A program made the position numbers and the translations under genes. A stretch of 64,000 nt of DNA from Pelagomonas calceolata (Eukaryota), in NCBI GenBank assembly GCA_918797485.1, contig CAKKNE010000001.1, positions 2,728,001 through 2,792,000 of the forward strand, written 5' to 3'. Below are positions 21,318 to 59,900 of this stretch, piece by piece. How positions within the stretch are numbered: position 1 is the first letter of the stretch; each line of letters starts with the position of its first letter. The notes beneath the pieces were generated by a model. The model searched no databases. It worked only from the letters and a program-made list of their open reading frames with translations, and was not told where the DNA came from.

Positions 21318-22530
21318 GACGCTAGGAAATGAAACACACTAGAAATGTAATGTGTACGTTACTTCGCGCGCGTCTCGGATTTGTGATATATCGCGCGAGA
21401 AGCCTTTTTTGCAGTGGAAAGCTCTCCGAGTCGAACTTGAACCAAGCAGCGGCACCGTGACCGTGACCCCTCTCTCACCCCCTAGGTCAACTTGAAGTGG
21501 TAGGGCGGCTTCGTTGCGGCGCACGCGGCACTTTGGCGCGATATATATAGACAGTAGGCCCTGCCGATCTGGCGAATGATAGCTCACGACTGCAAATACA
21601 GCCTGAGGCCGGGCCTCCTGAGGTTTTTGTCACCGTGAACCAGGGCCACTTATCCGATCATGATGGGTTATTAACCCCTGGCGCGGCCCGGGGTCATTAA
21701 CCCAGGTAAATACCCGTCAGTGCCGTCAGGAGCTCCAGTTATAGAGGGGCCTGGGCCACGCCGCGCCGTCGGCGGCGCCATGCCTTGGTGCTTGCCTTCA
21801 AGTTGGCGTACCTGCCAGTGCACGGCACGTAATAGTATGCCAAGGGGCTACTTGCGCGCCTCCGCTCGACCCCGTTTAGTGATTAAAGTACCGGGTGGTA
21901 AATAAATGAAAAATAAATAATTAGAAATCGAGGACGGAGGAGGCAGAGCTCCACCTCACGCCGCTTGGCGGCTTTCGCTCCGCGCCTCCAAGGGATAATA
22001 ATAGGTTAATAACGGGCAATTTACAGGCCCTGTCAGCGGGAACCTAGAACCAGGGAAGCGGGGAGGAAGCGGGCAGCTACTAATAGCTTGAGGAACCGCG
22101 GCGGCCGGAAATCAGCGAGTGGCATTTTCACTGTAGTGCCTACCCAATTAATAATTTACGCCTGGGGGATGCCTGACATTCTGCCGGAACATGGGCCCCT
22201 GAAGAAGCGAGGGCCCGGAAGGGCCGCCCATCAGTCTCAGGCCTGCGGCGGCTACAGTGAGTAGGATAGTAAGCACAATACCGTAGATTCCGAGTCGGCG
22301 TAGAATCAACTACTAGGCTTGGTCACGGTGTATGCCCGCTGTGGGCCTCGGATATTCCTCCTTGAGTTATTCAAGTTTGTCTATTTCAAGTTATTATTTA
22401 TTACTACTAGTAATTCGGAGTGACATATCATTTTGGGTGCCCACAATACCCGGGGCCCGCAAAAGCGAAGTAGTATATTGCCCAGGTAAGGTAAAGTGAT
22501 AGTCGCGGTAAGTATCTCCATGAAGGTGAG

Positions 22531-24371: not shown

Positions 24372-25175
24372 TCTTTTGCCTCCGCAAACACCGCACGCGT
24401 TGTGCCGCGCAGACGTGTAAGATACACGCGTAAGTAAGGGCATACTGCGGTAAGTAGTGAGCCTGAGAGGTTACCAGAAACCAGTACAATGACAGCAGAG
24501 TAATTAATTGGGGGATCTTTGTTCTTTGCTCAGTTGTAGCCCATACATAAGGCGTGGCCTGGCTTGACTTGAAGGCCGGCCACTTTGGAAGAGCTAGAAG
24601 GTCACGGTCACGGCCCGGGTTAGCCTCAGGCTCCGAGTCAGGCTGAGGAGCCAGCTTGAGCCCGGGCCAGAACTTGAACAGTTACCGTGACCCGAATGGT
24701 ACTGTGCTACTGGCCTCTAGGCTCCCCTCGAGATTGTGACCGGCCACTGAACCTTCCGAGTCAGCGATATTAGCTTTGGTATGTGCGTGCTTGAATCTAA
24801 TGAGCTGGGTGCAGCAACTTGAAGTGCACAATGCAGCTGTTGTAGCTAGGTCTCTCGGGTGTCAATGTGACACGGAGATACCAACAGGAAGGACTCTCAC
24901 TGAAACGTGAGAGTGTCACGGTGGGAACCCCCTCAACTCTGATAAGACAGAATTAGGGGACACCCCCCGTCTCCCTCCCGGCCCTCCCTTTTTGGTGGCG
25001 GGGCTCTTAGGCCTCCCTTTTTGGTTTCGCCCTTTGGGCGACAACAGAGCAAAAGAATAAAATCCCAACTACTAGTCTGTTGCTATTCCACTATTCCACT
25101 ATTCCACATGCTACTAGACCCTACCAGCTGTAGGACTAGGTAGCATGCTACTACTCGCCACCATCCTTTCCTGCC

Positions 25176-28755: not shown

Positions 28756-29135
28756 CTAGGTTGGCATTAACTGGTTAATAACCGGTAATTTACCCATTAT
28801 CACTCCTCGGAGGGGATCTGGGGTAAATAATCCGGTAAATAACCCGACGGGTTTTCGACTAAACCCGTTTAGTGCGATTAGCGAAAGACCCCTCCGGGCG
28901 AGCGGATGGGCGCAAGCAGCCCGTTGAGCTTTTGGATACGTACAGGTGCGCCAAGGCAAGTACCGAGTCATGTGGCCCGGCGCGGCCCAGGCCCGCGCCA
29001 GTGGCCCGTGAGGCCCCCTCCCCTACCCCTCTATAAGATCTTGAGGTAAATAACCCGCACTAAGCCGCAATTACCCGGGTTATTAACCCCGGGCGGCGCC
29101 AGGGGGAATAACCCCTCAGGTAAATGCCAACCTAG
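28756..29135. mobile_element. hAT-like MITE (380 bp)
   Basis: TIR CTAGGTTGGCATT / AATGCCAACCTAG. Flanking 8-bp TSD is CTTGTAGT (28748-28755) vs CTTGCAGT (29136-29143). Internal subterminal GGTAAATAACCCG-type repeats are present, with a related fragment at 21663-21713. Confidence 0.8.
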
Positions 29136-33906: not shown

Positions 33907-34685
33907 GAAGAGCAAAAAGGTTAGATTCAGAGTCTTCAGCCGCAATATTCATACCTTGTGAGTCTAGGTCCCAGACCATGACAGGGAATCTTATTGAGAA
34001 ATTCGTGTGTTTGCATTGCAACACGTGCTGCTCGAGCTCAGCTAATTAAACTATTTGATGAGATCGATCCGGGCCGGGTGTTTTTCTCCAAGGAAAACCC
34101 TAGACGACCCACCCTAAGGTGAATTTATGATCTATTGTAGACTCGAAGATCTATTGCGAGCTTCAAGTTCAAGTTCCCGAAACCAGGGTGTGATCGCCTA
34201 CTTGATCGCCTAATCCCGAAACCAGGCTACCGTGACTTCATCAGCCTGAGATTAGAGAAGCCTCCGGCCTAATTTGAACCTCGCGCGGTGATACTTATTG
34301 CTCTTCTCTCTTCGGCAACGTCCAAATTCCAACGCCTTCAAGTCGTGCCACCTTTTTGACCGTGACTAATTGAAACTTGAATTCCAAATTCGAGTCTTCA
34401 CCTACCGTGGCAGCTGGGCCGGTCTCAGGCTGTCTAGTGCGCTAGCATTCAAGTTCCAAGGGCCCGAGTGACGGCGAGTCGTCCGGAGCCTGAGTCCCCC
34501 CGGGTGCGAATGTACTTGGGCTGGTCCAATGAGCCCGCGATCATCGTAAAAAGCGCACTAGCCGGGGGGGGGGGGGAACTACCGTAACAGGTACTCAACA
34601 CTGGCACGGTACTCAACTGTTAGGCCCCGCGGCCCCCGCCCCTCAGGCTTGCCGTAAATTTTCAAGTTTTTCGAATAAGGAAATA

Positions 34686-34961
34686 GACCCATTCTCCATG
34701 AGTCCTAATTAAGATGAATTGCCCTGCGAATCTTAATACTGCGTGGAGACTTCGAAATTCACAGGGGGGTCAAGCGAATCATCATCATCATCATGATAGT
34801 CGACGTTGATTTTCAAGTTGATTTGGCGCGCAATGAGCGTCACGGTAATGCCACGCGCCGACCGAATGGCGGGAAACTTTTGCTGAGGCGCAGGTTCCGT
34901 ATGCTAAAATAATGGGCTGTGCAAAGTTTGGTACCATGCGGGCAGCCTGAGCGACGCGGTG
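34686..34961 (+). repeat. Dispersed repeat R3, copy 1 (inverted copy 56672-56935; partial copy about 58815-59000)
   Basis: About 270 bp of colinear similarity, e.g. ATGAGTCCTAATTAAGAT, GGAGACTTCGAA and GGCGGGAAACTT.TGCTGAGGCGCAGGTTCC. Confidence 0.9.
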
Positions 34962-35393
34962 ATGCCGCATGATGCCAGTGGTCCGAGCCTGAGATAAAAA
35001 CCTGCCCCAAAACCCACTGGCAAACTGGAAAATCGCCCGCCGAGCCTGAGACGTATAAATTGAGCCATAATTACGGAAAATTTTCCTAGCGTTCCATATC
35101 AGTGTATGTTGGTTTTTTTCGCCTTGTAGATCATATCCAGGAGCATCTCAAGATTTGTTGAATCGCCGGTCGATTTTAGCGTGGCCCGGGCGCGCAGCGG
35201 ATATCGTCGTCGCGGCTCCTCAGCGCGGACCTTACTAGGCGCCCCCCCCCTCGGAAGAAGTCTGAGCAGCTTTGTTTTTACATAATTTTAATCCATTCCT
35301 GATGCGCTGGGAGCCCACGGAGAAAGTAGCCCAGTGGAGTCTCCCTTCATTCGGTAATAACGTGGTACACGTAACAATACAACAGGATTGATT

Positions 35394-36894: not shown

Positions 36895-37989
36895 TGACAC
36901 TGGTGGAGAAAAGCATGACTATTTTAGGTTCAAGTTATCAAACCCGAGCTTGGTGTTTTTCCTTCCTAGATTGAACATCGAGGTATTAGTTAGCTGGATA
37001 CCAAGAATGCCCTCAAGATGCGCCTAGATGTCCCAGTCTCGTCGGGTGATGGCAGTCAATACGCACTAGTGCTGACCTAGTTCGTAAATCGTGGGTTTGT
37101 CAATTAAGCAATCTCAGACCCCGCGCCGAGGAAAGCAGTTTGCCACTAGCATTCGGAGGCTTGTACGGTGAAAGATCAGAAAAATTTCCGCCGTGACTAG
37201 ATTAATCTGCTCATTTAAAATTACTAGTGTCGTATGAATAGTAATCATAAACTGAAGCAGGAGAGAGGGCGGATTAAACTGAAGCCTGACCCTGACTCGG
37301 AGCCCGAGGGTCTCGAGTCTGTGCCGAATTCGCTTTAGGCCGTGACCGTGACCGTGACCGTGACTAGTAGATCGCGTTCCGAGTCTGCTGCAGCGGCGGC
37401 GATTGAAAAAGTAACCCCTGCCTGCCAGTCCAGTCTCGGACAGGGCAGAGTACTTCTCGATGGCACTCTACAAACGACTCGGCCAGCGGCCAAGTGGCCG
37501 GGAACACGAATCTGCGAATTATCACGCACCACTCCTCTCGGTCTGTGCGCGCACCGCGCGCACCGAATTGGCAGGGCGCAGATATTACTTGTAGCGACGT
37601 CCCTGCCAGGCTTTTGGGCTGCCCACGGCGTTGCGGTCGCGCAGTCCGGCCTAAATAAAGCCTCGTTTCGGTCACCCACGCAGTCGCCCCATTAGGGCTC
37701 GCCCGACCCACCCACCCAAAACGTTGTACTGCAGGGGAAGGGGTACGCGGCCGCTCAAAACACGTGCGACGGATCAAGGAGTAGAGGAACAACACACCAC
37801 CTGACCGAGGTCGCGGATCGCCGTGATTCCATGCGCGGACGGTTTATTTCGCTACAGTGCCTATCGTGCCCTCGGCGGGGCTTCAAGGTTTTCAAGTTTG
37901 TAGTCCGCGAGAATCAGACAGCCATGCGCCCGCGGTGTGAAAGGGTGGTTCGAGGGGCGCGTCGCGATAGGAGATACGCCCAACGCCGG

Positions 37990-39752: not shown

Positions 39753-40230
39753 TTCACACTATATTTGAGTGTCCAAAATTGGACGACGTCAGAGGAGATT
39801 TCCTCCAGAAACTAGAAACGATCTTCCTCCAGAAACTTCAAGTTGAACTAGAAACGAACGCCGCGACGGATTGTTTGGCTTTATTAATGGGAGATGACCC
39901 GCCCCAGGAGATTGAGAATTCGCTCTATCGTTTCTTGACGTCTCTTTTCAAGCGCCGACTGGGTATCCTAGCCGCGCAGGGAGAAGGCCTCTAGAGATCT
40001 CCGAGTCTCTAGAGGCTCGGTGCTCCGCCGAGTCCTTCAAGTTCAAGTTTTCCTTTAGGATATTCCTTCCTTAATTATATATTAGAAATAGTTGTTAGTT
40101 CTCTGATTGTTGTTGGAAGTACTATAGTGTGTTCCCAGGGGTCTTTTGCTTTTGGCCGGTTTAAATTTTTTCAAGGTTGGCGCGTAGGCTATTGCGCGCC
40201 AGCTCCGCTCGGTGTAGGAATACATTGAGC

Positions 40231-43200
40231 ATGAGAGCGGATCCCATTCCCAAGCCTCCACCAAAACTCGGGATTTCGCATGCAACACGCGAAGAGCGTG
40301 AGTGTTTTACCTTGTTCCAGCAGCACGATGGCAGGAAACGCAAGACTAAGGATATCCCGGGTTGGTCTCCTATTCCGCCGATAGAGTGCCGCGATGGACC
40401 TGATGAAGCATGTAACGAGACAAGCGAGACTAAACAAGGTGAGAAACCCAAGCAGAATGCGTTTGACAGGATCATGACAGCAGACCAAAGGCGACGCTCT
40501 AAAAAGCGAAGCTCAAAGGCAGTAGGTAACCAGGATGCCGAATTTGATCAAACAGAATTCGCATCCAGATATTGGCTAGACGAATCCTTGCCTGTGCTAT
40601 CTCGACCAGAGGAAATATTTGGAGATATTGTCCGGCGCTTCCCCGAGATAAGTGACTTAGCGAGCAAAATGGAAAGACCGTTGCGAGTTGCAACTATGTG
40701 CAGTGGCACAGAAGCCCCACTCTTAGCCTTGGAACTTGTATCGCGTGCCTGTGAAGTTCAAAAAGAGAGCCCCCTCGCAGTTACACACGTCTTTTCAAGT
40801 GAAGTTGAACCTTTCAAGCAGGCTTATATCGAACGTAATTTCGCACCGCCTCTTCTATTTCGGGACGTTCGGGAACTTGGCAGCAGGCAAGCACACACGG
40901 CCTTTGGTTCACTTGAAAATGTGCCGCGTCAACGTGGTGACGTGGATATTCTAGTTGCCGGCACGTCATGTGTTGACTACTCTAATCTTAACACTTGTAA
41001 GAAGACATTAGAGCAGTTAGGGGAATCTGGTCAGACGTTCTATGGCATGTTCGAGTGGGTGCAAAGAGCACGGCCGCCTCTAGTACTTCTAGAGAACGTA
41101 TGTGGCGCACCGTGGAAAGGAATGATTCGAAACTTTGAAGCAATCAACTACCGTGCTCAAGCAGTTCGTCTTGATACCAAGAATTACTACCTCCCTCAAA
41201 CTCGCACTCGAGGCTACCTTCTGGCCATTGCAGACGAAGTGGCATTGCCTGATGTAATTCATCGCTGGGAAAGACAACTCCGCGCTATGGAACGCAATGC
41301 ATCCGCAAGCCTTGAAGCTTTTATGCTTGACGCCCACGATCCACGTGTTCAGGCAGCGCGGGAAGACCTCAGCTACAAAAAGAAAGATAAGGAAGATACG
41401 CCCTGGGACAAGTGTGAGGCGCGACATGCTCGAGTTCGTATTGAGGAAAAACTTGGACAAAAGCGCCCGCTAACTAACTGGGTGCATGGCGTGAATGCTG
41501 CATCTCTGCCGGACTTCGCTTGGCGCGACTGGGCGGGTGCTCAAACAGAGCGGGTTCTCGACAGTATGGATATAGACTACATGCGCCTCGTCAAGCGCCG
41601 CGAAGATGCAAACTTCAAGACAAGTGTGTGGGATTTATCTCAAAATGTAGATCGATCTGACCCGACCAAAGCTAAGCTGGGAATATGTCCATGTCTCACG
41701 CCTTCCTTGTGTGCCTACGTCACTAATCAGGGCCGGCCCGTCGTCGGTGTCGAGACCCTCGCTCTGCAAGGTATCCCAATTGATGACCTCTTGCTCACTC
41801 GTGAGACCGAAGAGAATCTCACCTCGCTCTCCGGGAACGCTATGTCTACGACGGTTGTTGGATCTGCTCTTCTTGCTGCGCTTCTTTCACTTCCCATGGG
41901 CGTCCTTGGGCGCATAGGAATTGTTGATTCAAAAGCCTGCGCAAGACATTTGGACACTAATTATCCAGTCCAACACCATAGCACGCGAGGTAGCGATCGA
42001 CATGCAAATGTTGTAAGATCGCAAGTTCTGGTTCGGGAGCCGCTGGAATTGGGTGCAACAATTCCAAAGTACTTTCAAGGTGCTGGGTCATTCGCGGAAC
42101 GTGTCCTTCACGCCGCTTCCCAGAGCGCCAAGCGGTGCGTCTGCGAGGCTCAGCGGACTAATTCTTCGTCCAGGGTTCTCTACTGCACTGCCTGTGGTCA
42201 CAGCGCTTGCGAGGCATGCGCAGGCAAACCAGAACACACTCAGTACAAAGTGGATTGTCGGGGTCGGGTATCTCCTGAGGAATTTGAGGTTGCTCTTGGG
42301 TTGGCACTCCCAACAATTGTCACTCTTTCTGGCTTGTCGACAGCTTCTCTCTGCAAATTACGCCCAGAAACTGCTGGCCTCTCTCGTAATCTGCCTGCAA
42401 GCAAGAAACGCAAGTCAGAAATGGGTGCTATCGCACAAACTGCCCTCGACGATGAGGTCTGGAGGAGATGGGTTGAAATTGTGTCTCATCTTGACAGAGC
42501 AAGTTTTCGTCTAGTTGAGATGAGACGATGTGTTGAATGTTGGAAAGTACGATACACAGATGCGTCAAGCGCCCTTGTTCTTGAACTGACATTAGGAGGT
42601 GTATATGGAATTGTATGGCATGCATTTGTTGAGCCACCTCGGGGGCGAGGTCCACTGCGAGACCGGCTTGAAGGTTTCGCAGTTCTTCGCGGTTTCGTTG
42701 AGAGTACGGGGGACAGCCTCTTGGATGCCAACTGGAGTTTGCGGCTGCCAATTGATGATGATATTGACCTTGAGCTGAGCTACGATGGGCCTGTGGTAGA
42801 ATCGTTTGCATCATCCTTTGGAATGGAAGATGAGAATATGATCGGCAAACAACGCTATTCACATATCAATGTGAAAGTGCTGAAGGGTGCCTCGTATCTT
42901 GATGAAGATGTATCTGGACGTCGACAACAGCGTCTATGTTTCCCCTTAACCTGCCCCACCACTAGTGCCCCCCTCTCCCTTCATTCAATACACAGCGACG
43001 GCCTTGTCTCACCGGCAATAACCCTGTGTTGTGCAGGTTATGTGCTACTGCATAAATGTGCCGCGCCTTTGGGCTCCCTCCATAAGAGGTTGGGAAACGA
43101 CAGACCAGAACTTTATCTCTTTCTTGAATCCAAGCCTGTTGGTCCTGCAGCATTGGATACCTACGTCTTTGCGCGTGACTGGCGACGTCTTGCTCTGCGC

Positions 43201-46200
43201 GAAGCACGGTCATCACTCGTGTGCTCACTCCAGAGAGGTTGGCACCCACTTGAGTGTACTAAAGATAAGGCCAATGTTACAGAGATTAAGACATCAACTA
43301 TTTTGGGGCGTTGGGTGCCTATTAGTGCTGATATTTCCCAGGTTAATGCGGCCGCATATACAGAGCAAGTTCAAACAGCCATTTCCGTGAACGTTTCCTC
43401 TCCCTGGAACGCAAGTTCCATTCTTGAGATCGCAGTCGATCTCGGGGATCTCTGTGCGACGTCAGTATCGCCTGTCTGGGGGGGGGCATCGACAGTACAT
43501 CCTGAACAGTGGAAGTCGCTCACTCTGAGGGTGGTAGGCGCGTGTGGTGCTGTCGCATCGGCGTCAAAGATGGCCTTAGGGTTTCTGGTACCTCGACTGA
43601 AATTACCAGTGGCACTCTCTGTCTGGCAGACAGTACAAGGGGGGTCCAGACTTGCAGCCAAAGTCCGGGCCGGACTGCCATGTTGCACGACATGTGCTCC
43701 CCTAGCACCAACACTAAGCTGGGTTAAAGTAGCGGGGAAATCGAATCAATTCACCGCCATTGAAGACCCATACCTCGCAGGTGAGTACGAGCGAGCGCTA
43801 AAAAACCGACCCGCCGCCTTCGAACTAGATTCTAAACGCGAAAAACAGCAGAATGCTGATATCGGCTTTCTACGTATCGCCATTAATCCCGTTGCCATTG
43901 CTGTGCGGGCGTTCTCTGCGCTCCCGCGGTTCCTTCAGGCACGAGCTGACGGCGAAGGGAAGGTCCAACTTGACTTTCGGATTGTTAGTAGTAATTTTGG
44001 CAGGACAATGCTGCCCGCTCGCTCATTTTCTCTTTGTAGCAATCGTGTTGACGAACAGGCTCCCCAGACTCCTGGTTTTGGCAATGCAGCATCGGCACTG
44101 CGGCCTGAACAACTTCGGTCATTAACTTGGATGCAGCGCATGGAGGCAACATGTGAGCCCTTTATTGAGGAAGAAGTTGTAGATGAAGCTCTTTCTGTTC
44201 TTGGCTGGCGAGCAGAAGCTCGTGTGCAAATTCCTGTTGTGGTCCGAGGGGGTGTGCTTGCAGATGCGGTTGGCTATGGAAAAACTGCAATTACGCTTGC
44301 ATTGATTGACGCGCAGTGGCGAGACCAAGCCCCAGAGCTCCCTCCACACCTCTTGGGCAAGGCTATTCCCTGTAAGGCCACTCTCGTTATCGTACCTAAG
44401 CACCTCATGGCACAGTGGCCAAGTGAGCTAAGAAAATTCCTCGGTGATCGCTACAAGTGCCTTACGATTATGAGTGTCGGTGATCTAATGCGGCTTACAA
44501 TCCCAAAAGTTCTCGATGCGGAAATCATTATCATGTCGGTGCAGACTTTCAGATCAAAGGCGTATTTTGATCATCTTGCTGAATTTGCCGCGGTCCATGC
44601 TTTCCCGAGCAAGGGTGGGCGGTACTTTGAGGAGGTTCATAGTCGGGCTCTCCAAAACATAGAAAAGTATGTTTCCGCGTTTCAAGCTTCTGGCCAAGCA
44701 GGTCTTGATTCCATGCGAAAGGCTGATAAAAAATCCCTGAGGGTGACACTAGCTGTGAATACTAGTAAGAAGCAAGCCTACGAGAGCGGGGTGCCCCTGC
44801 GGGGGGCGCGTGAATCCAAGGTTGCGCAGAGAAAAAAGTCATCGCCCAGTGTTGTGGAATACTTTTCGTCGGATGATAGTGAACAAGAAGAAAAGGCCTT
44901 TGTCAAACCGAGGGTGGAGTCGGTACGCACTAAGCGCCCTGGTCCAAAGGCACCACCTCTTGAAATGTTTTATTTTGCCCGAAAAGTCGTGGATGAGTAT
45001 ACATACTTGGACCATCGTGATGTTCCAACTGTACAAGCCATCAAGGCACGTTGCTCGTGGGTTCTATCTGGCACCCCACCACTCGAGTCCTTCGATGACG
45101 TTAAGGGCATAGCAGCATACTTGGGAGTGCATCTTGGGGCGAGCAATCCTGTGGTACTCACCAAAAAAGGTGATCGTCCAACTGATTCGCGTAAGGAACT
45201 GTCCAAGTCAGAGCTGTTTCAGGAGTTCTTGGAAGCGAAGTCCCAGTCGTGGCATGCGCGTCGCCAGGATGTTGCACAGAGATTTTTGGACAGATTTGTA
45301 AGACAAAATGTAGCTGAAATAGATGAGATTCGCTTTCAAGCAACAATACAACGGGTAGTTATGCCTGCACCGGACCGTGCTGTGTATTTAGAGCTTGAGC
45401 ATCATCTCCATGCACTCGAAATGCAGAAGGTAAAGGCCGCAGCACGTGGTAAGAAGAAATTCCGTGATAAGAGTGATCGGGAGACCAGACTTTCAGAGGC
45501 TCTGGAAGGGAGCGCCGATGCTGAGGAGGCGCTCCTGAAACGATGTGCACGCCCAGCCTCGGCCCCCAATACGATAATGAATGGTAGTAGTGGCGACGGC
45601 AGCGATGTTACAGCCTGTTCTAACGTTGTGTCTAAGCGCGCTGCGGAGCTGGAGAATTGTGCAACTCAAATTGTCAGGGAGGTTGCTGCAGCACATCGCG
45701 TTGAGGAGGAGATTCGGCGTTGGGCTGCAGTGAGTATGTCCAGGCCTCTCAATGGAGACCGAGGGTGTGATAATATTTTCAAAAAGCACGGGAACAGCAT
45801 GTGGCAAGTTGATGGAGAAAAGAATGCTCGCGGACGGACCAAAAAAAAAGATAAACCTGGCAAACCATTCGATAAATTTACGGGTCACCAACATATGCGC
45901 GAGTGGTGGAACGAGCTAAATCAGGGAATTGGTGACAGTGATGCATCGGCCCAGTTGCTTGCGCTGGCTGCCGAAGGCCTAGCCATTGCAAGTCATAGTC
46001 TTAAAGGCGAGTCACATGAATTTGCATCTGGTATCGTACGTAGTCCCGAAGTAAGAAGAAGATTAGACGCACAGACCCGTCCTGAGATCATCAAGGCAAC
46101 CCGTTGTGTAGATCTTGTCTTTCCTGAACCAATTATTGAGGGCGAATCTGCTCCCGTGAGAAAACAACGGGATGACACTCTCAAAGAGCTTTTCTGGGCT

Positions 46201-47091
46201 CTGCGAAACCAAGTGTATGAACTACGAGCCTTGAACAAAGAGTACGTGGGCAGGACACGTTCCCTCCGATTCTTTCGGGCCATCGAGCAAGCTCAAAGAG
46301 AGTTTGTTGCTTCACAGCCGTTTTCATCATCTGATCAGGCGACTAACGTACAGATTCCACTCACCAATCGAGCCATCTTTTCATGCTGCGGTCATGTTGG
46401 CGAAACCTCAAAGATGCGTGCAGCAGCAGCCCGAGAGGAATGTCCAGCAGCTGGATGCCACGCAAATGTGCGCTCTCATTCTGTTGTGGAATGCGCATCG
46501 CTTTGCCTTAATGAAAGCAACTCAAATGCCAAGGCGGTCACTCATCATGGTGCCAAGCTTGCAGAAATCATAGATCTCGTGAGTGGTTTCCCAAAGGATG
46601 AGCGGGTCCTCATATTTGTTCAATTTGAGGATCTCCTGACCCAAGTACATGCTGTCCTCACTAAGGAGGGTTTCCCAGCGCTGAAGCTAAAAGGTACAGC
46701 TCATCAAATGTCGGCCATAATGTCAAAATTTCAAAAAGCGAAGTTGGGAAAGAATGATGAGCGCATACTTCTTCTAGAACTCCACAACGAGTCTGCATCT
46801 GGTGCGAACCTAACTGCTGCAAATCATGTGATCTTTGTGCACCCACTTCACGTAAGATGCACAGTCTTCCCCTAGTCTCATTTTTATCTTGATTCTTCTC
46901 CCTCTGAAAGTTGATTTACACAGGTCAAGACCTTACAGAATTACGTCATGTGTGAGACTCAGGCCATAGGGCGTGTTCGTCGTTATGGACAGCGGAAAAT
47001 TGTCCATCTTTACCGGTTCCTCGTCGATGACTCGATTGACATCAAAATATACAAACGTCGATGTGATGAGCAGGCAAAGCGTTTTCGTTGA
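40231..47091 (+). CDS. DNMT5: DNMT5-type C5 cytosine DNA methyltransferase fused to an SNF2 ATPase; introns 46852-46923 and probably 42920-43036
   Basis: MTase motifs LRVATMCSGTEAP, AGTSCVDYS, LENV, YYLPQTRTRGY and GNAMSTTVVG. SNF2 motifs GGVLADAVGYGKT, VVDEYTY, WVLSGTP, SGANLTAANHVIFVHP and QAIGRVRRYGQ. Confidence 0.95.
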
Positions 47092-47757: not shown

Positions 47758-49713
47758 TATTGTTATGACGAAAATGATTTATGCTTTTTGAGTGTGTGTG
47801 TTCAACTTGCTTCAAGCCTGAGATATACACCAATTTGCCTGGTCGTTCCCAATTTGAGTCCATGCTTATTACGGGCCAGTGCTATTCTATTAGTCTTTTT
47901 TCTTTGTTTTGGTACTGTGGCTGTTGTAGCAACAAGTTTCGAAATACATGGTGACAATCTTCCACAATCGAGCATCGAAACTCGCTTGACTTGAGGTCCG
48001 TTAGTTTTTTTTTCAGACGCGGCATTTTGCAATGAGAACGGGACGTTGCTAGCTATTTGCCGTTCTAGCGCGTCTGGAAACCTGGCAGAATATTTCCCTG
48101 CGATCTTTTGTCGGCGTGTCGTACGAGCAATGTCAGACTTGGGAAGAATCATCTCAGCCCTAACCTCGAAGTCATTTGTCATTGGCCAAGTCGCTTTGTT
48201 TCAAGTTGTCCTGCATGTCAGTCTCTATGTCACTCATATTCTATCTTCACCCACCTCGACTTGATCAACCATTGGCGCCGCAGACAGTTTGCACCGTGCC
48301 CCGCCGCTTGATTCTTCATTTCAAAGATTTTCATTTCATGCACCAAACTGCGGTACTAGCACGTTCTGCGGTACCTACGGTACCGTACCGCAGTAGGTCT
48401 GTGGCTTACCAGCTTGTACTTGTACTGCGGCATGTACCCGGGCCCGATACTATTTATCGTCACGTTCCTTCCTTTGGGACGCCAGCCACTCTGTCCGACC
48501 GTGACTGAGTCGCAGGCCCGGGCGTTTTGACCCCCCCCTCCAAACGTTGTCTAGGCAGTTTCATTACATTACAGGTAGTCAGCGGAAGATGAACAGCTTG
48601 TAATCCGTCACGGTGTGTACGTCAGCGCGCGGGCATCCTCGTGCAAAACACTTAGTCTACGTCGTGGTCGCGGGCAGCCGGGCGACGCAATGCCGAAAAC
48701 GCGGCAGCAAACGAATCCCTTCTCGCCGAGAAACGGCCAAAAACCATGAAAAAAGACTTGCGATCGCCTTTTTTGGCGCAGTTTCGAGCCGATCGGGCCA
48801 CCGCAGTGTCGGATATCATCGTCCGTGTGACCGCCGACGATCTGAGACAAAAAGCAGGGCGAATATCGCGCTGAATGTCTAGGACTTTTTGTTGTATGCC
48901 TTCCCAGCCACCACGGCGGGCATATGCGGGGATTCGGCAGCTGGCGCTCCAACAGCTGCTGAAGTCAATTCCCCTTCAATATTATTATTTTTAGAGGCAG
49001 CCTGAGCCAAACTCCCCAGTCATCAGGCAGCCTCGCAGCCCGCTGTGGTGCACCACAGAGCCACTTTCCGGGCATTCGAGCAGCTGAGTGATGCAACCCT
49101 GCTTCGAGTATAAAAAGGCCCAAACGCACGCGACCGCGGCGGCCGCCACTGGCATCCTCAATTACTTTTGTGCGGGTGCCAGACAATATATTCGACCTCT
49201 TCTCTTTGGTTCGAAGTGGCAGTGCCAGTGGTCACGCTTAGGGCCTCAGGCTCGGGCGCGTCGCCACTACGTGGGTTCCGAGCCTGAGTCCGCCGAGTCG
49301 ACGGTGACTCGGACTCGGACGACTGGCACTTTTAAGTTGACCCCGTTTCATTGCTGCGAGCTCGTACGCTCGTGCATCTTTACGCGAGATTTCAGTACGT
49401 TTATGCGCGTGATTTATACCGCAGTAATAAACTAGGTAAACTACCTACGGTACCTACGGTACCTACGAGTAGAAGGTACAAGCCGCCCCCGTTGTAGACG
49501 CAAAAATCTAACGCGTAGACTTTGCTTTACCGTGCGTACTTCGCGCCGGCCGCCAGTGCATCGCCCTAACCAAACAAAAAGCGTGTCGTTGCTGTGGGCG
49601 AACGCATCGCTGTTTGGAGCAGCCTGATGAGCACATAAAGGCCGTAGAGCTAAGACAAGAAAAATCAATAGGCGATTGAGCCCCGAGCCTCCAGAGCGTT
49701 TAGCGCTAGTTGT

Positions 49714-55942: not shown

Positions 55943-56671
55943 GGGTCCGCCCCACGCGAGCCCCAGGTGTTAGTATAGCGCAATGCTGCTGTGGGTGGCG
56001 ATGACATCTGTGCACGGGCATACGTCCTGTGTCAATACGCACCGTATAGTACGATGCTCACTCAGCGACTTCATCATCTGTTGCCATCTCCTCTGTCCCA
56101 GCCATGGCAGATATATATCCGAGTCGCATACGAGCTGTATCTAACACCACAGAGCCCGCACGCGGATTTTAGGACCGATCCGCATTACCTCTCAAAAATC
56201 ATGATCCACATAATGATGATGACTTCGGTAACCCGCCGGCGGCCGTGAAGGATGAATCCCCTCCCTCAGGCTCTCTGCCCGCCCCCGATCATTTTGCCAA
56301 GTTGGTTTCTTTGCCGCCGCGGGTTGATACGTAGTACAGCACCGCCGATTGTGCCGATTGTGGCTTCTGGCGGGTTGCACTTGTCCTTAGTCCGTAACAC
56401 CTGATGAATCGAGTGACCAACAAAGTGCGATTTTTGTAGAGTGTTTGATGACGTAGCCTCCTCCTCCTACCAAACAAAACACTGGCGTTGCTAGCAGGCA
56501 GTACTAGTATGTTCCTGCCTGATTTGGAGAAAATTCTGGTTCCACCCAATCCCCGGCTTAGCAACGGAATTCCTCTTTGAGCCCTATATAGATAGGCAAC
56601 GTTAGGCAATAACGTAATTATGGTTCAATTTGTACGTGGCGATGTTGGGTCGGGTTTATCCGGGACCCTCG

Positions 56672-56935
56672 CACCGCGTCGCAGCTGCTTTCTCAGCGCG
56701 AGGCTGCCCGCATGGTACCGAACTTTTGCAGCCTATTATTCTTAGCATATGGAACCTGCGCCTCAGCACAAGTTTCCCGCCATTTGGCCGGCGCGTGGCT
56801 GCACGCGCAATGCGCGCCACAAAATCAAAATCAAAGTCGACTATTTGCTTGACCCCCTATAAAATTCGAAGTCTCCAAGGAGTCTTAAGATTAGCAGGGT
56901 AATTTATCTTAATTAGGACTCATGGCGGATGGGTC
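56672..56935 (-). repeat. Dispersed repeat R3, copy 2
   Basis: Reverse-complement match to 34686-34961. Confidence 0.9.
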
Positions 56936-59900
56936 AACCCGGGGTGGGGTGGGGTCTACCCTAATCCAATTGGCTTGCCACAGCGGCCTTCGGATTCCGA
57001 TTACGACCGCCGTTGCGGGCAATGCGAAGTTCGTGGTGTACCAGGCGATGTACACATAGACGAGTTTATATCTCCGAAGCCCGTTTGGACGCTAGGTATT
57101 TTTACGCTGCAGCCCTTCAGTCTGATGCCTCCTGTCGCCGCGCCGGATCTATCCTCCCGCCCCGGTCCGCGCGCGCGGTTCACCCTGGTTCGACCGGGCG
57201 AGGCTACGGTCATCTTGAAGTGCCCGGGCCGTAGGTATCATAGCGTCGAGAGAGTAGCCGACTCAATGTTTTTCGGCGTTTCGACGTGGACCTTTCGCTT
57301 CTTGAATTTTTTATTGGCAGTTAGTTGGCTTTTCCCTCGCATCGTACCTCATGCTTCAAAAAGCAGCGGTTCTGGATAATAATGCAGCATGCAATCCTGC
57401 TAAGTGGTAGAGTCGACTCCCACGGGGATGAGTAAATTGCCAGAATCCACTGAATCCACTAACATACTTAGCAGAGATGCAGAGGCGGGCACGCGGCGCG
57501 GTGCAAGATCGGTTGTCTATTCCGTCCGCGTCTCGATTAGTATCTTTTAAAGGTTTGCTGCGATTAGTAACACGTAAGGGCAACCTTGATTGCCGGGTCT
57601 TCTAATGTCCTGTTTACCTTTTTTAATTGACAAAATGACCACCCCTTCTATTAAGCAACACTTTTGCTCATGGGAAAGCCATCTAAACTGGCGACTTCCT
57701 AAACCCGTCTACTATATAGCCTACTGCAGCATGGAATGAAGACGAATTCGGTGACCGAAAAAAAAACCGCAGCGGGGGGGGGGCGTATTGATCCACAAAT
57801 CCTTTGTTTGATCAACAGTAAGCTAGCTGGCCTGGTAATCCCATTGTCACCTCGGGAGGCTGCCCTGGCGTAGGAAGCGCTCTGTGCCAGAAATCCCCAA
57901 CAGGCGTCGATGGCGAGCTAGGACCAACCAAGGATCCAGCCACGAGCTCTTAGAAATATTTCCCCCCTTAAATTTTTTTTTGTTGGGTCTGGCAAGTCGC
58001 CCGAGCGGTCTTGGAGCGTGTGCAATGGCTGATTCACCTGGGCCGCGTCGAAATCATTACTTCGTCTGCTGGATCGCCTGCTAGATCTCTCTCTATATTA
58101 AATTTCCACATCAAGCCGCGTCATAATTCCTTATCAAGTCGCTGAGCGCCGAAAGTCGAATCTGCCGGCCGCCCGTCTCGTGAGTGGGAGGAAACGTGAG
58201 TGGGCTTACCTCGCCATCGCCTGCAGTCGTATATGTGGGAAGAAAAATTAGCGACAAGATCAGAAACGGTCGTCAGAGAGGTTGAGCAAGTAGTCCTAAC
58301 GGCGACGATGCAGATCCGTGAACGGTTCAAAATCTAATGATAGGTTTTAAAAGCTCGCGATGGCCGCGGAAGATTGATTGACCGGGCTTCCCAAAACAGA
58401 AGATTCATTGACTGGGCTTCCCAAAACAAAGCGGCTAGCTTTTTCCGACATCGGGAGTCACAAGACTACACGGTCACTTTGCTATGGCTCCAAGTACACT
58501 TTTTTTTTTAATTAGTAGCTCATGAATTACCGATTTTCCGCATTCTTAAATATAACTTGACCCCCCAAAGAAACGTCGAACCCAGCAGCAGAGCGCGTTT
58601 GTGGAAGTCTGTGGGGTTTTGGCTGTCTGTCGTCTATAACTAGTCAATGACTACCTCTACCTTGACGCGTGAGGGCCAGCGAGCACGATGGGGGTGGTGC
58701 AATGCCCCCCCCCCACCCCACCCCCGCCCGTTCTGGTATTATTAGTAGGGCCTGGCCTGGGATAGTACAACTCAGGCGGCTAGCGTAGACAGCCGGCCCC
58801 CTCGGAGTACATTCTCAGGCTTTTTTCGAATATGAAACTGGGTTCGTTCGTCTTGAATTAGGACTCACTGGCATGACCCCCTGTGAATATATATACTACG
58901 TGGGGACTTCGAAATTGATAGAAGGAGAATAGTAATTGCAGAGTCCGTCGTTTGGCGTTATGATTCGGAGGGGCAGGTTCCGAATGATAAAAACCTGCTT
59001 TCTGATGAGTGAGTACAAGGGCATAACAATATATATATAATCAATATTAGTTGGCCGGGTTTTATTTCAAGTTACTATACCTCCCAAGAAACTGGCTATA
59101 TAAACCGTAAAAACCCCGCCCAAAACCAAGGAGCCCTTGTAGATGTGTAAATAAACCAAGGGGCACTTACGAAAGAATTATTTCCTATCGTCCCACTGGG
59201 CCATATCTATATATGGCTCAAAGCCTGAGGGAATCCCCTCGTCTGTCTAAGCCTCAGGCTGAGCCGACAACTAACGTCCTGAGCCATGTCTTGGCTTGCA
59301 TGTGGCGACGGGAAATTGGTGGTCTGTTTGAGGTGCGTTGCTGTGTTAGGTGGTCGGGCGCTTCTCTACTAGTACTAGTAACAATTTGCAGATCTGTGTT
59401 TGCGGTCGTGCACCGATTTAGGGCCTCGCAGAGAGCAGCATCTCTCGGGCACTCGCAGACTGCCTAAGCAGACTGCCGAGATGGCTGCCTTTCGGCGCAC
59501 GCGTCTTAAGCATGGCGCAGACGAGTACCTAGAACCTCCACGCGCGCCCGGTTGCTGCCCCGTGCCGTACGCGAGCATGGGGAACGCGATAAAAACTGGG
59601 CGGTCGCGTAGAGGAATTTCCAAGGTTATGATTTTTTTGCACCATTCCGGGGCTTCAGAAGAGTCTCTGGGTCGAATGAAGTCCGATTTTTTCGCTTGAG
59701 CTTTACTCAGTGCTGTAGATAGAAATCGAATGACCTGTGCGCGTAGCAAGTACAGGTCGTGTTTACAAAAAAAAAAACGGCTACGACTAGTCCGGTCGCT
59801 CGTCACCGTGATTCAGACGAGAACAACTCGCGAGCAGGTGCGCCCGCATCGCCGGACAAAGTCCAAGGAGGCGAATTCATGCCTTTCGCTCGGGGTCCTC

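Follow-up and report, generated by a model that had tools for sequence, protein, structure and literature searches.

Octamers of the form XY-C-rc(XY)-G-XY, in which a dinucleotide XY stands on either side of its own reverse complement and is separated from it by a fixed C and a fixed G, occur with all 16 XY targets in the window, the 64,000-nucleotide stretch of Pelagomonas calceolata DNA analyzed here. They are insertions with a net gain of 6 nt, on which we have very little doubt. Judging from their sequence, they are probably scars, left where a cut-and-paste DNA transposon that has C...G ends and duplicates 2 bases of target was excised by way of hairpins on the flanking DNA.

R3, a dispersed repeat of ~450 bp, has three copies in the window (c1, c2 and c3). 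These copies and the gains in and beside them are given here by window position, other loci being designated by L numbers.

34686 to 35100, + strand: R3 copy c1, ends approximate.
56570 to 56935, - strand: R3 copy c2, lacking the c1 gains.
58800 to 59240, + strand: R3 copy c3, diverged, with rule gains at 58866-58873 (CA target) and 59222-59229 (AG target).
59193-59203: 3-bp-target version of the putative scar, in c3.
34661 to 34668: octamer with TT target on the upstream border of c1; common to all orthologues examined.
34780 to 34791, + strand: (CAT)4 expansion out of an octamer; not in L086, L106, L029, L052, L083 or L100.
34790 to 34797: 6-nt rule gain, AT target; old, common to the lineage of 93-95% identity.
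34812 to 34819: 6-nt rule gain, TT target; only in the window's strain.
34839 to 34846: 6-nt rule gain, GT target; old, limited to the c1 locus.
34944 to 34951: 6-nt rule gain, AG target; not in L086, L106, L029 or L052.
34962 to 34980: 9-nt gain in the window's strain only, made up of a putative 3-nt half scar (GC target) and, at 34973-34980, a 6-nt rule gain with TG target.
34986, 35015 and 35043 (within 34986 to 35050): three further c1 octamers, also in close orthologues.

The first-pass annotation of this DNA had compared the R3 copies and read four stretches (34780-34797, 34812-34819, 34839-34846 and 58866-58873) as gains that follow the rule and duplicate a 2-nt target. All four are found at the positions claimed, and c2 indeed lacks the three c1 gains. 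The converse case, in which the octamers would belong to the R3 consensus and the other copies would carry deletions, was checked: the consensus, from 44 clusters of 93 copies among the matches listed, is without the octamers, as are orthologous wild alleles, and on that basis the octamers are insertions that duplicate their 2-nt target. The copies come from a metagenome scan for R3 that gave at least 120 loci, 91 of them R3-like and 29 discarded as chance matches; the 91 listed loci together with c1 and c2 make up the 93, and one representative of each cluster was scored.

Among the matches listed, the GT gain (34839) is carried by two of 29 scorable representatives (15 of the 44 were unscorable), the AT gain (34790) by two of 15, and the TT gain, CAAGTT at 34812, by one of the 93 R3 copies and by none of the orthologous wild alleles. 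The carriers of both the GT and the AT gain are c1 and L029, orthologues of one locus whose lineages are 93-95% identical; L029 and L052 had been taken for paralogues, a reading replaced when the comparison showed orthologues. The gains at 34812 and 34839 are both of 6 nt, obey the rule and have a duplicated 2-nt target. The stretch beginning at 34780 also holds a 6-nt rule gain (34790-34797), but it is not an 18-nt rule event, since the remaining 12 nt are a later (CAT)4 expansion. The six orthologues that lack this expansion have a plain octamer at the 34790 site, and by this comparison the microsatellite appears to have grown from a scar. At the site of the c3 gain (58866-58873), 10 of 14 scorable representatives have a plain TG and none has the gain, c3 itself lying outside the 93-copy set; the stretch is inverted relative to the remainder of c3 and matches the + strand of c2. 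The c1 octamer at 34986 is a rule gain relative to the R3 consensus, and in a tally of insertions against that consensus 12 of 25 six-nt insertions obey the rule, with no flank filter applied. A reading of the gain at 34962 as one scar with a 4-bp target was dropped, the orthologues showing a composite of two events. The same comparison gives the order of events in c1: first the old AT and GT gains, then the AG gain (34944) and (CAT)4, and then the TT gain at 34812 and double gain of 9 nt at 34962-34980, which only the window's strain has.

Gains of this kind segregate between alleles elsewhere as well. In a set of 222 clean, de-duplicated indels between orthologous alleles, 11 of the 16 6-nt indels follow the rule and five do not, compared with 0.9% of random 6-nt deletions; unfiltered and with overlapping pairs included, 20 of 35 follow it. 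Relative to its closest alleles, the window shows three rule events per 23 substitutions (L009) and three per 33 (L037), and several other pairs show none. At 24816, six bases are skipped in most of the read depth in four metagenome runs.

By count, the window has 140 octamers, whereas Markov models of orders 1-3 predict 16-17 and one of order 4 predicts 29, and each of the 15 alternative pairs of fixed apex bases gives 14-49 words. The 12 octamers that are not made up of G and C only number 619 against 63 expected in 317 kb, a set that consists of the window and 25 loci partly orthologous to each other. Eight higher-GC loci, all adjacent to R3, are also enriched (37 versus 3.8), as are loci of more distant pelagophyte lineages with 66-69% nucleotide identity in shared genes; 13 unrelated loci (156 kb) have 24 octamers against 23 expected. 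Density is 3.97/kb outside long ORFs and 0.28/kb, near chance, inside them. Besides R3, other repeat families have such gains, as does non-coding DNA throughout. None of the bases flanking the octamers is fixed, so the C and G are not derived from a longer target, and a fixed target of the form C-XY-G is ruled out by this flank composition. CG and GC targets are rare in the 317-kb set (10 and 22, compared with 40-73 for other targets), perhaps due to CpG decay or target avoidance.

The octamers are also clustered, 340 of 753 lying 20 bp or less from another, and nested, since removal of the presumed scars exposes 93 more as compared with 1-20 in control classes. At window 39830-39846, and in L052 relative to the window, a second putative scar interrupts the middle pair of an older one; L037 lacks the inner of the two, at 39837. 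Clustering in non-coding DNA, tandem repetition of 54 of 618 octamers and the likely position of the window in a putative centromere could each be expected if the octamers were selected centromere or protein-binding motifs, or plain slippage products lost by deletion between 2-bp repeats. We consider this highly improbable, as the octamers are 16 different words under a copy rule with no common motif, each is private to one locus and missing from the family consensus, and slippage cannot make a reverse complement between a fixed C and G; polarity already largely refutes it.

As the middle pair depends on the target, it would have been copied from the flank as a reverse complement. Under flank-hairpin excision, an element would insert at XY and duplicate it. 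When the element leaves, the non-transferred strand would be nicked one base inside each end, such that the element's 5' C stays on each flank, and the freed 3'-OH would attack the other strand precisely at the border, which would close each flank into a hairpin tipped by C. A host nuclease would open the hairpins 2 nt beyond the tip to give the 3' tails XY-C-rc(XY) and rc(XY)-C-XY, whose last two bases could pair, and filling of the gaps would yield XY-C-rc(XY)-G-XY. Repeated local re-insertion would produce nested and clustered scars, some of which may then seed microsatellites. In 16 of 16 words the middle dinucleotide is common to both predicted tails, which fits a microhomology junction as far as the products tell. 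The octamers have the marks of a footprint, namely net gain with target duplication and palindromic, flank-copied nucleotides about a tip base.

Shorter indels bear on the hairpin step. Among the 28 clean 3-nt indels, 13 have a C/G tip and two an A/T tip. Both non-palindromic C/G-tip cases show the polarity predicted by the hairpin model, and one-sided 3-nt variants would fit hairpin products; the other 11 of the 13 are at palindromic targets, and most of these are also explicable as tandem slippage. Gains of XY-C-XY or XY-G-XY at palindromic targets are, in addition, what a 1-nt overhang should give. This raises the possibility of transposon scars formed with no hairpin, where a mariner-like double cut would leave one terminal base per flank and a templated insertion of the polymerase-theta type would add the reverse-complement pair, and these loci do have TA-flanked elements and a TA-specific 9-nt unit. 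Such a route predicts XY-C-XY at any target, whereas the 3-nt C/G cases are palindromic targets or one-sided palindromes, and it predicts variable inserts, whereas the 6-nt product is uniform over 16 targets; we give it only a slim chance. Two 3-bp-target versions were seen, a class not enriched by count (13 versus 4-27), and odd palindromes outside the octamers show a slight C/G-tip excess.

In form, the scars appear to work like the footprints of flank-hairpin excision in known systems, and what is unusual in them is the fixed C/G tip, the uniform product and the density. Flank hairpins on the donor are known for hAT, Transib, RAG and Muta1, where host enzymes open them and end-joining leaves footprints, a likeness to the scheme above; an element-derived tip base or a 2-bp duplication is not described for these in the available text of the source, and Muta1 differs in that its excision is mostly precise (PMC5499845). 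Ac/Ds, a hAT system, forms its footprints through hairpins, P-nucleotides and microhomology, and resembles our case in its palindromic P-nucleotide insertions on a tip base and in microhomology joining after the flank hairpins open (PMC5873905). However, in Ac/Ds the tip base complements the flank base (PMC5873905), whereas here it is always C on the left and G on the right, and Ac/Ds duplications are usually 8 bp (PMC12730594) with variable footprints, whereas here they are 2 bp and one product dominates. With a fixed C/G tip, no fixed flank base and a 2-bp duplication, the scars are not footprints of the Ac/Ds type.

Tc1/mariner footprints consist of a 2-bp duplication with element-derived bases in between. 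These elements, whose cleavage mode is given in PMC5499845, differ in being TA-specific and in forming no hairpin, and a target-dependent reverse complement is impossible for them. The scars use all 16 dinucleotides, TA in 40 of 753, and a Tc1/mariner footprint was rejected.

Several CMC/CMCT elements (EnSpm/CACTA, PlavakaB, ESTA, CNEST) share with the scars C...G termini (CAC..GTG, CATCA..TGATG, CACGG) and duplications of 2-3 bp (PMC12730594; 10.1101/2025.05.19.654958). EnSpm ends are CAC..GTG, PlavakaB combines C...G ends with duplications of 2-3 bp (PMC12730594), and CNEST makes a TA duplication (10.1101/2025.05.19.654958). CMC/CMCT elements also have motifs in common with Transib and RAG1 (PMC12730594; 10.1101/2025.05.19.654958). 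They differ in that the duplications of the cited EnSpm families are 3 bp and ESTA and CNEST are TA-specific, whereas the scars here use any dinucleotide, and in that their transposase was not found in the ORFs checked here. A nick one base inside the element with a flank hairpin was not found documented for CMC elements in the available text of the literature examined, and the word "footprint" is absent from the main texts of PMC12730594 and 10.1101/2025.05.19.654958. The assignment of the scars to CMC is putative. No description of these octamers was found in the literature, covered mostly at the level of abstracts, and none is present in the available text of PMC12130899, PMC11282704, PMC9860276 and PMC4455052.

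The donor type is likely CACTA/EnSpm-like (CMC). One candidate element and a relative are as follows.

L031:10291-10863: candidate donor, 573 bp, CAC...GTG ends, 22/24 terminal match, 2-bp duplication.
Window 48523 to 49218: degenerate relative of the L031 element, with a CACTT-type end at 49218 and no matching target duplication.

That the L031 element is the donor itself is a tentative proposal, and the chances are somewhat against it. CAC-type ends recur in relatives in L001, L024, L025 and window 48523-49218, none with a clean duplication; a matching 2-bp duplication is present in one of five family copies, the intact one in L031 (chance 1 in 16), the other four being degenerate or partial. 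In culture runs X1 and X2 the family has multiple copies. For the L031 element, a parse with more internal ends (CG...CG) and an AA duplication was dropped, since other copies also have the outer CAC/GTG bases. A CMC transposase would be a DDE enzyme with C(2)C and H(3-4)H motifs; the element has no ORF near transposase length, and no transposase was found in the 103 ORFs checked of 137 from 36 loci or in 16 window ORFs. The published gene table has, among the entries listed, one Tc1-like transposase only; the published assembly is repeat-masked, so transposases may be hidden. No C...G insertion with a 2-bp duplication was seen among large indels between orthologues, a search of the window alone for terminal inverted repeats plus duplication gave no C...G element with a 2-bp duplication, and other repeat families have no clear donor ends. 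An element-filled and an octamer allele of one site were not seen in the metagenome runs or among large ortholog indels, where reads left the L031 flanks uncovered and assemblies break at repeats. R3 and the end of the candidate element have 0 matches in the viral contigs scanned, and a genome-contig match, L121, was a chance bacterial one.

Other elements in these loci were considered. R3 copies are often in inverted pairs (window 56570-59240, enclosing a 1.8-kb interior; L003:9576-10095; L051:4035-5267), which suggests that R3 forms the long terminal repeats of some larger, possibly Mutator-like element; R3 was set aside as donor, given the inverted pairs and no C...G ends with a 2-bp duplication seen. 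A hAT-like MITE of ~380 bp with CTAGG ends and 8-bp duplications is found at window 28756-29135 and L051:7620-8011, is missing from alleles of runs X15 and X18, and has a related copy near window 21640-22050. It was rejected as donor because its duplications are 8 bp, although its ends are C...G. Further small elements are at L079:10286-10650, L030:2968-3113 and L069:1478-1662, two with 8-bp duplications and one TA-flanked.

With no transposase in the ORFs checked and no filled allele seen, the octamers might also have formed with no transposon. A host enzyme would make 2-nt staggered breaks, of the type made by Spo11 and topoisomerase VI, and after fill-in one untemplated C, an addition of the Rev1-like kind, would be placed on each 3' end before hairpins close, reopen and join. 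This requires a fixed untemplated C on both ends and ligation into a 1-nt loop, a combination for which we know of no precedent. SPO11 is present, and recombination in centromeres is believed to be suppressed (PMC9481584); target preference is nil beyond the low CG and GC counts. Given the existence of a CAC...GTG family with a 2-bp duplication, we regard a transposon-free origin as unlikely and retain excision of a transposon via flank hairpins as the probable one.

The window has a GC content of ~50%. In P. calceolata, whose mean GC content is 63%, each chromosome has one region of ~259 kb with 52% GC, read as a centromere, and these putative centromeres show no transposon accumulation (PMC9481584); a second assembly shows low sequence conservation in the low-GC regions (10.1101/2024.10.30.620910). 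The window probably lies within such a putative centromere. A wider proposal, doubtful as yet, is that pelagophyte centromeres may be under continuous in-and-out traffic of a nearly invisible CACTA-like transposon, or of a domesticated RAG-like hairpin nuclease, whose first base would remain at the tip of the hairpin. Uniform scars of 6 bases, about one new per 10 substitutions between the closest alleles, would then make up a considerable share of the intergenic DNA, give rise to microsatellites and partly account for fast centromere divergence with few intact transposons. If true, the scar rule would read CMC transposase cleavage chemistry straight from genomes, and the model predicts precisely where a C...G transposase with a 2-bp duplication nicks. 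Excision footprints are normally studied at single engineered or mutant sites, and here a k-mer rule is enough to count a uniform scar that occurs at ~4/kb in the non-coding DNA of an alga abundant in the ocean and of its relatives. The scars would thereby document earlier transposon movement in regions described as transposon-poor and poorly conserved (PMC9481584; 10.1101/2024.10.30.620910). The (CAT)4 case illustrates one route of microsatellite birth.

The window has other features of its own. It encodes an AP-1 mu ORF, 100% identical to a protein cluster with a UniRef entry for Pelagomonas calceolata among its members, and, at 40165-46875 on the + strand, a 2236-aa ORF that combines C-5 cytosine methyltransferase and SNF2 domains, a layout that we take to be that of DNMT5. 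About 497 bp at 37413-37910 are present in the window and L037 and missing from the diverged orthologue L052, with no terminal repeats seen. Arrays of a 9-nt TA-anchored unit are found at L057:3960-4460, L079:16770-17700, L003:11770-11890, L014:7410-7530 and window ~48370-48390. Single 9-nt gains at TA differ among alleles, and the unit is possibly the product of a second, TA-specific footprint system.
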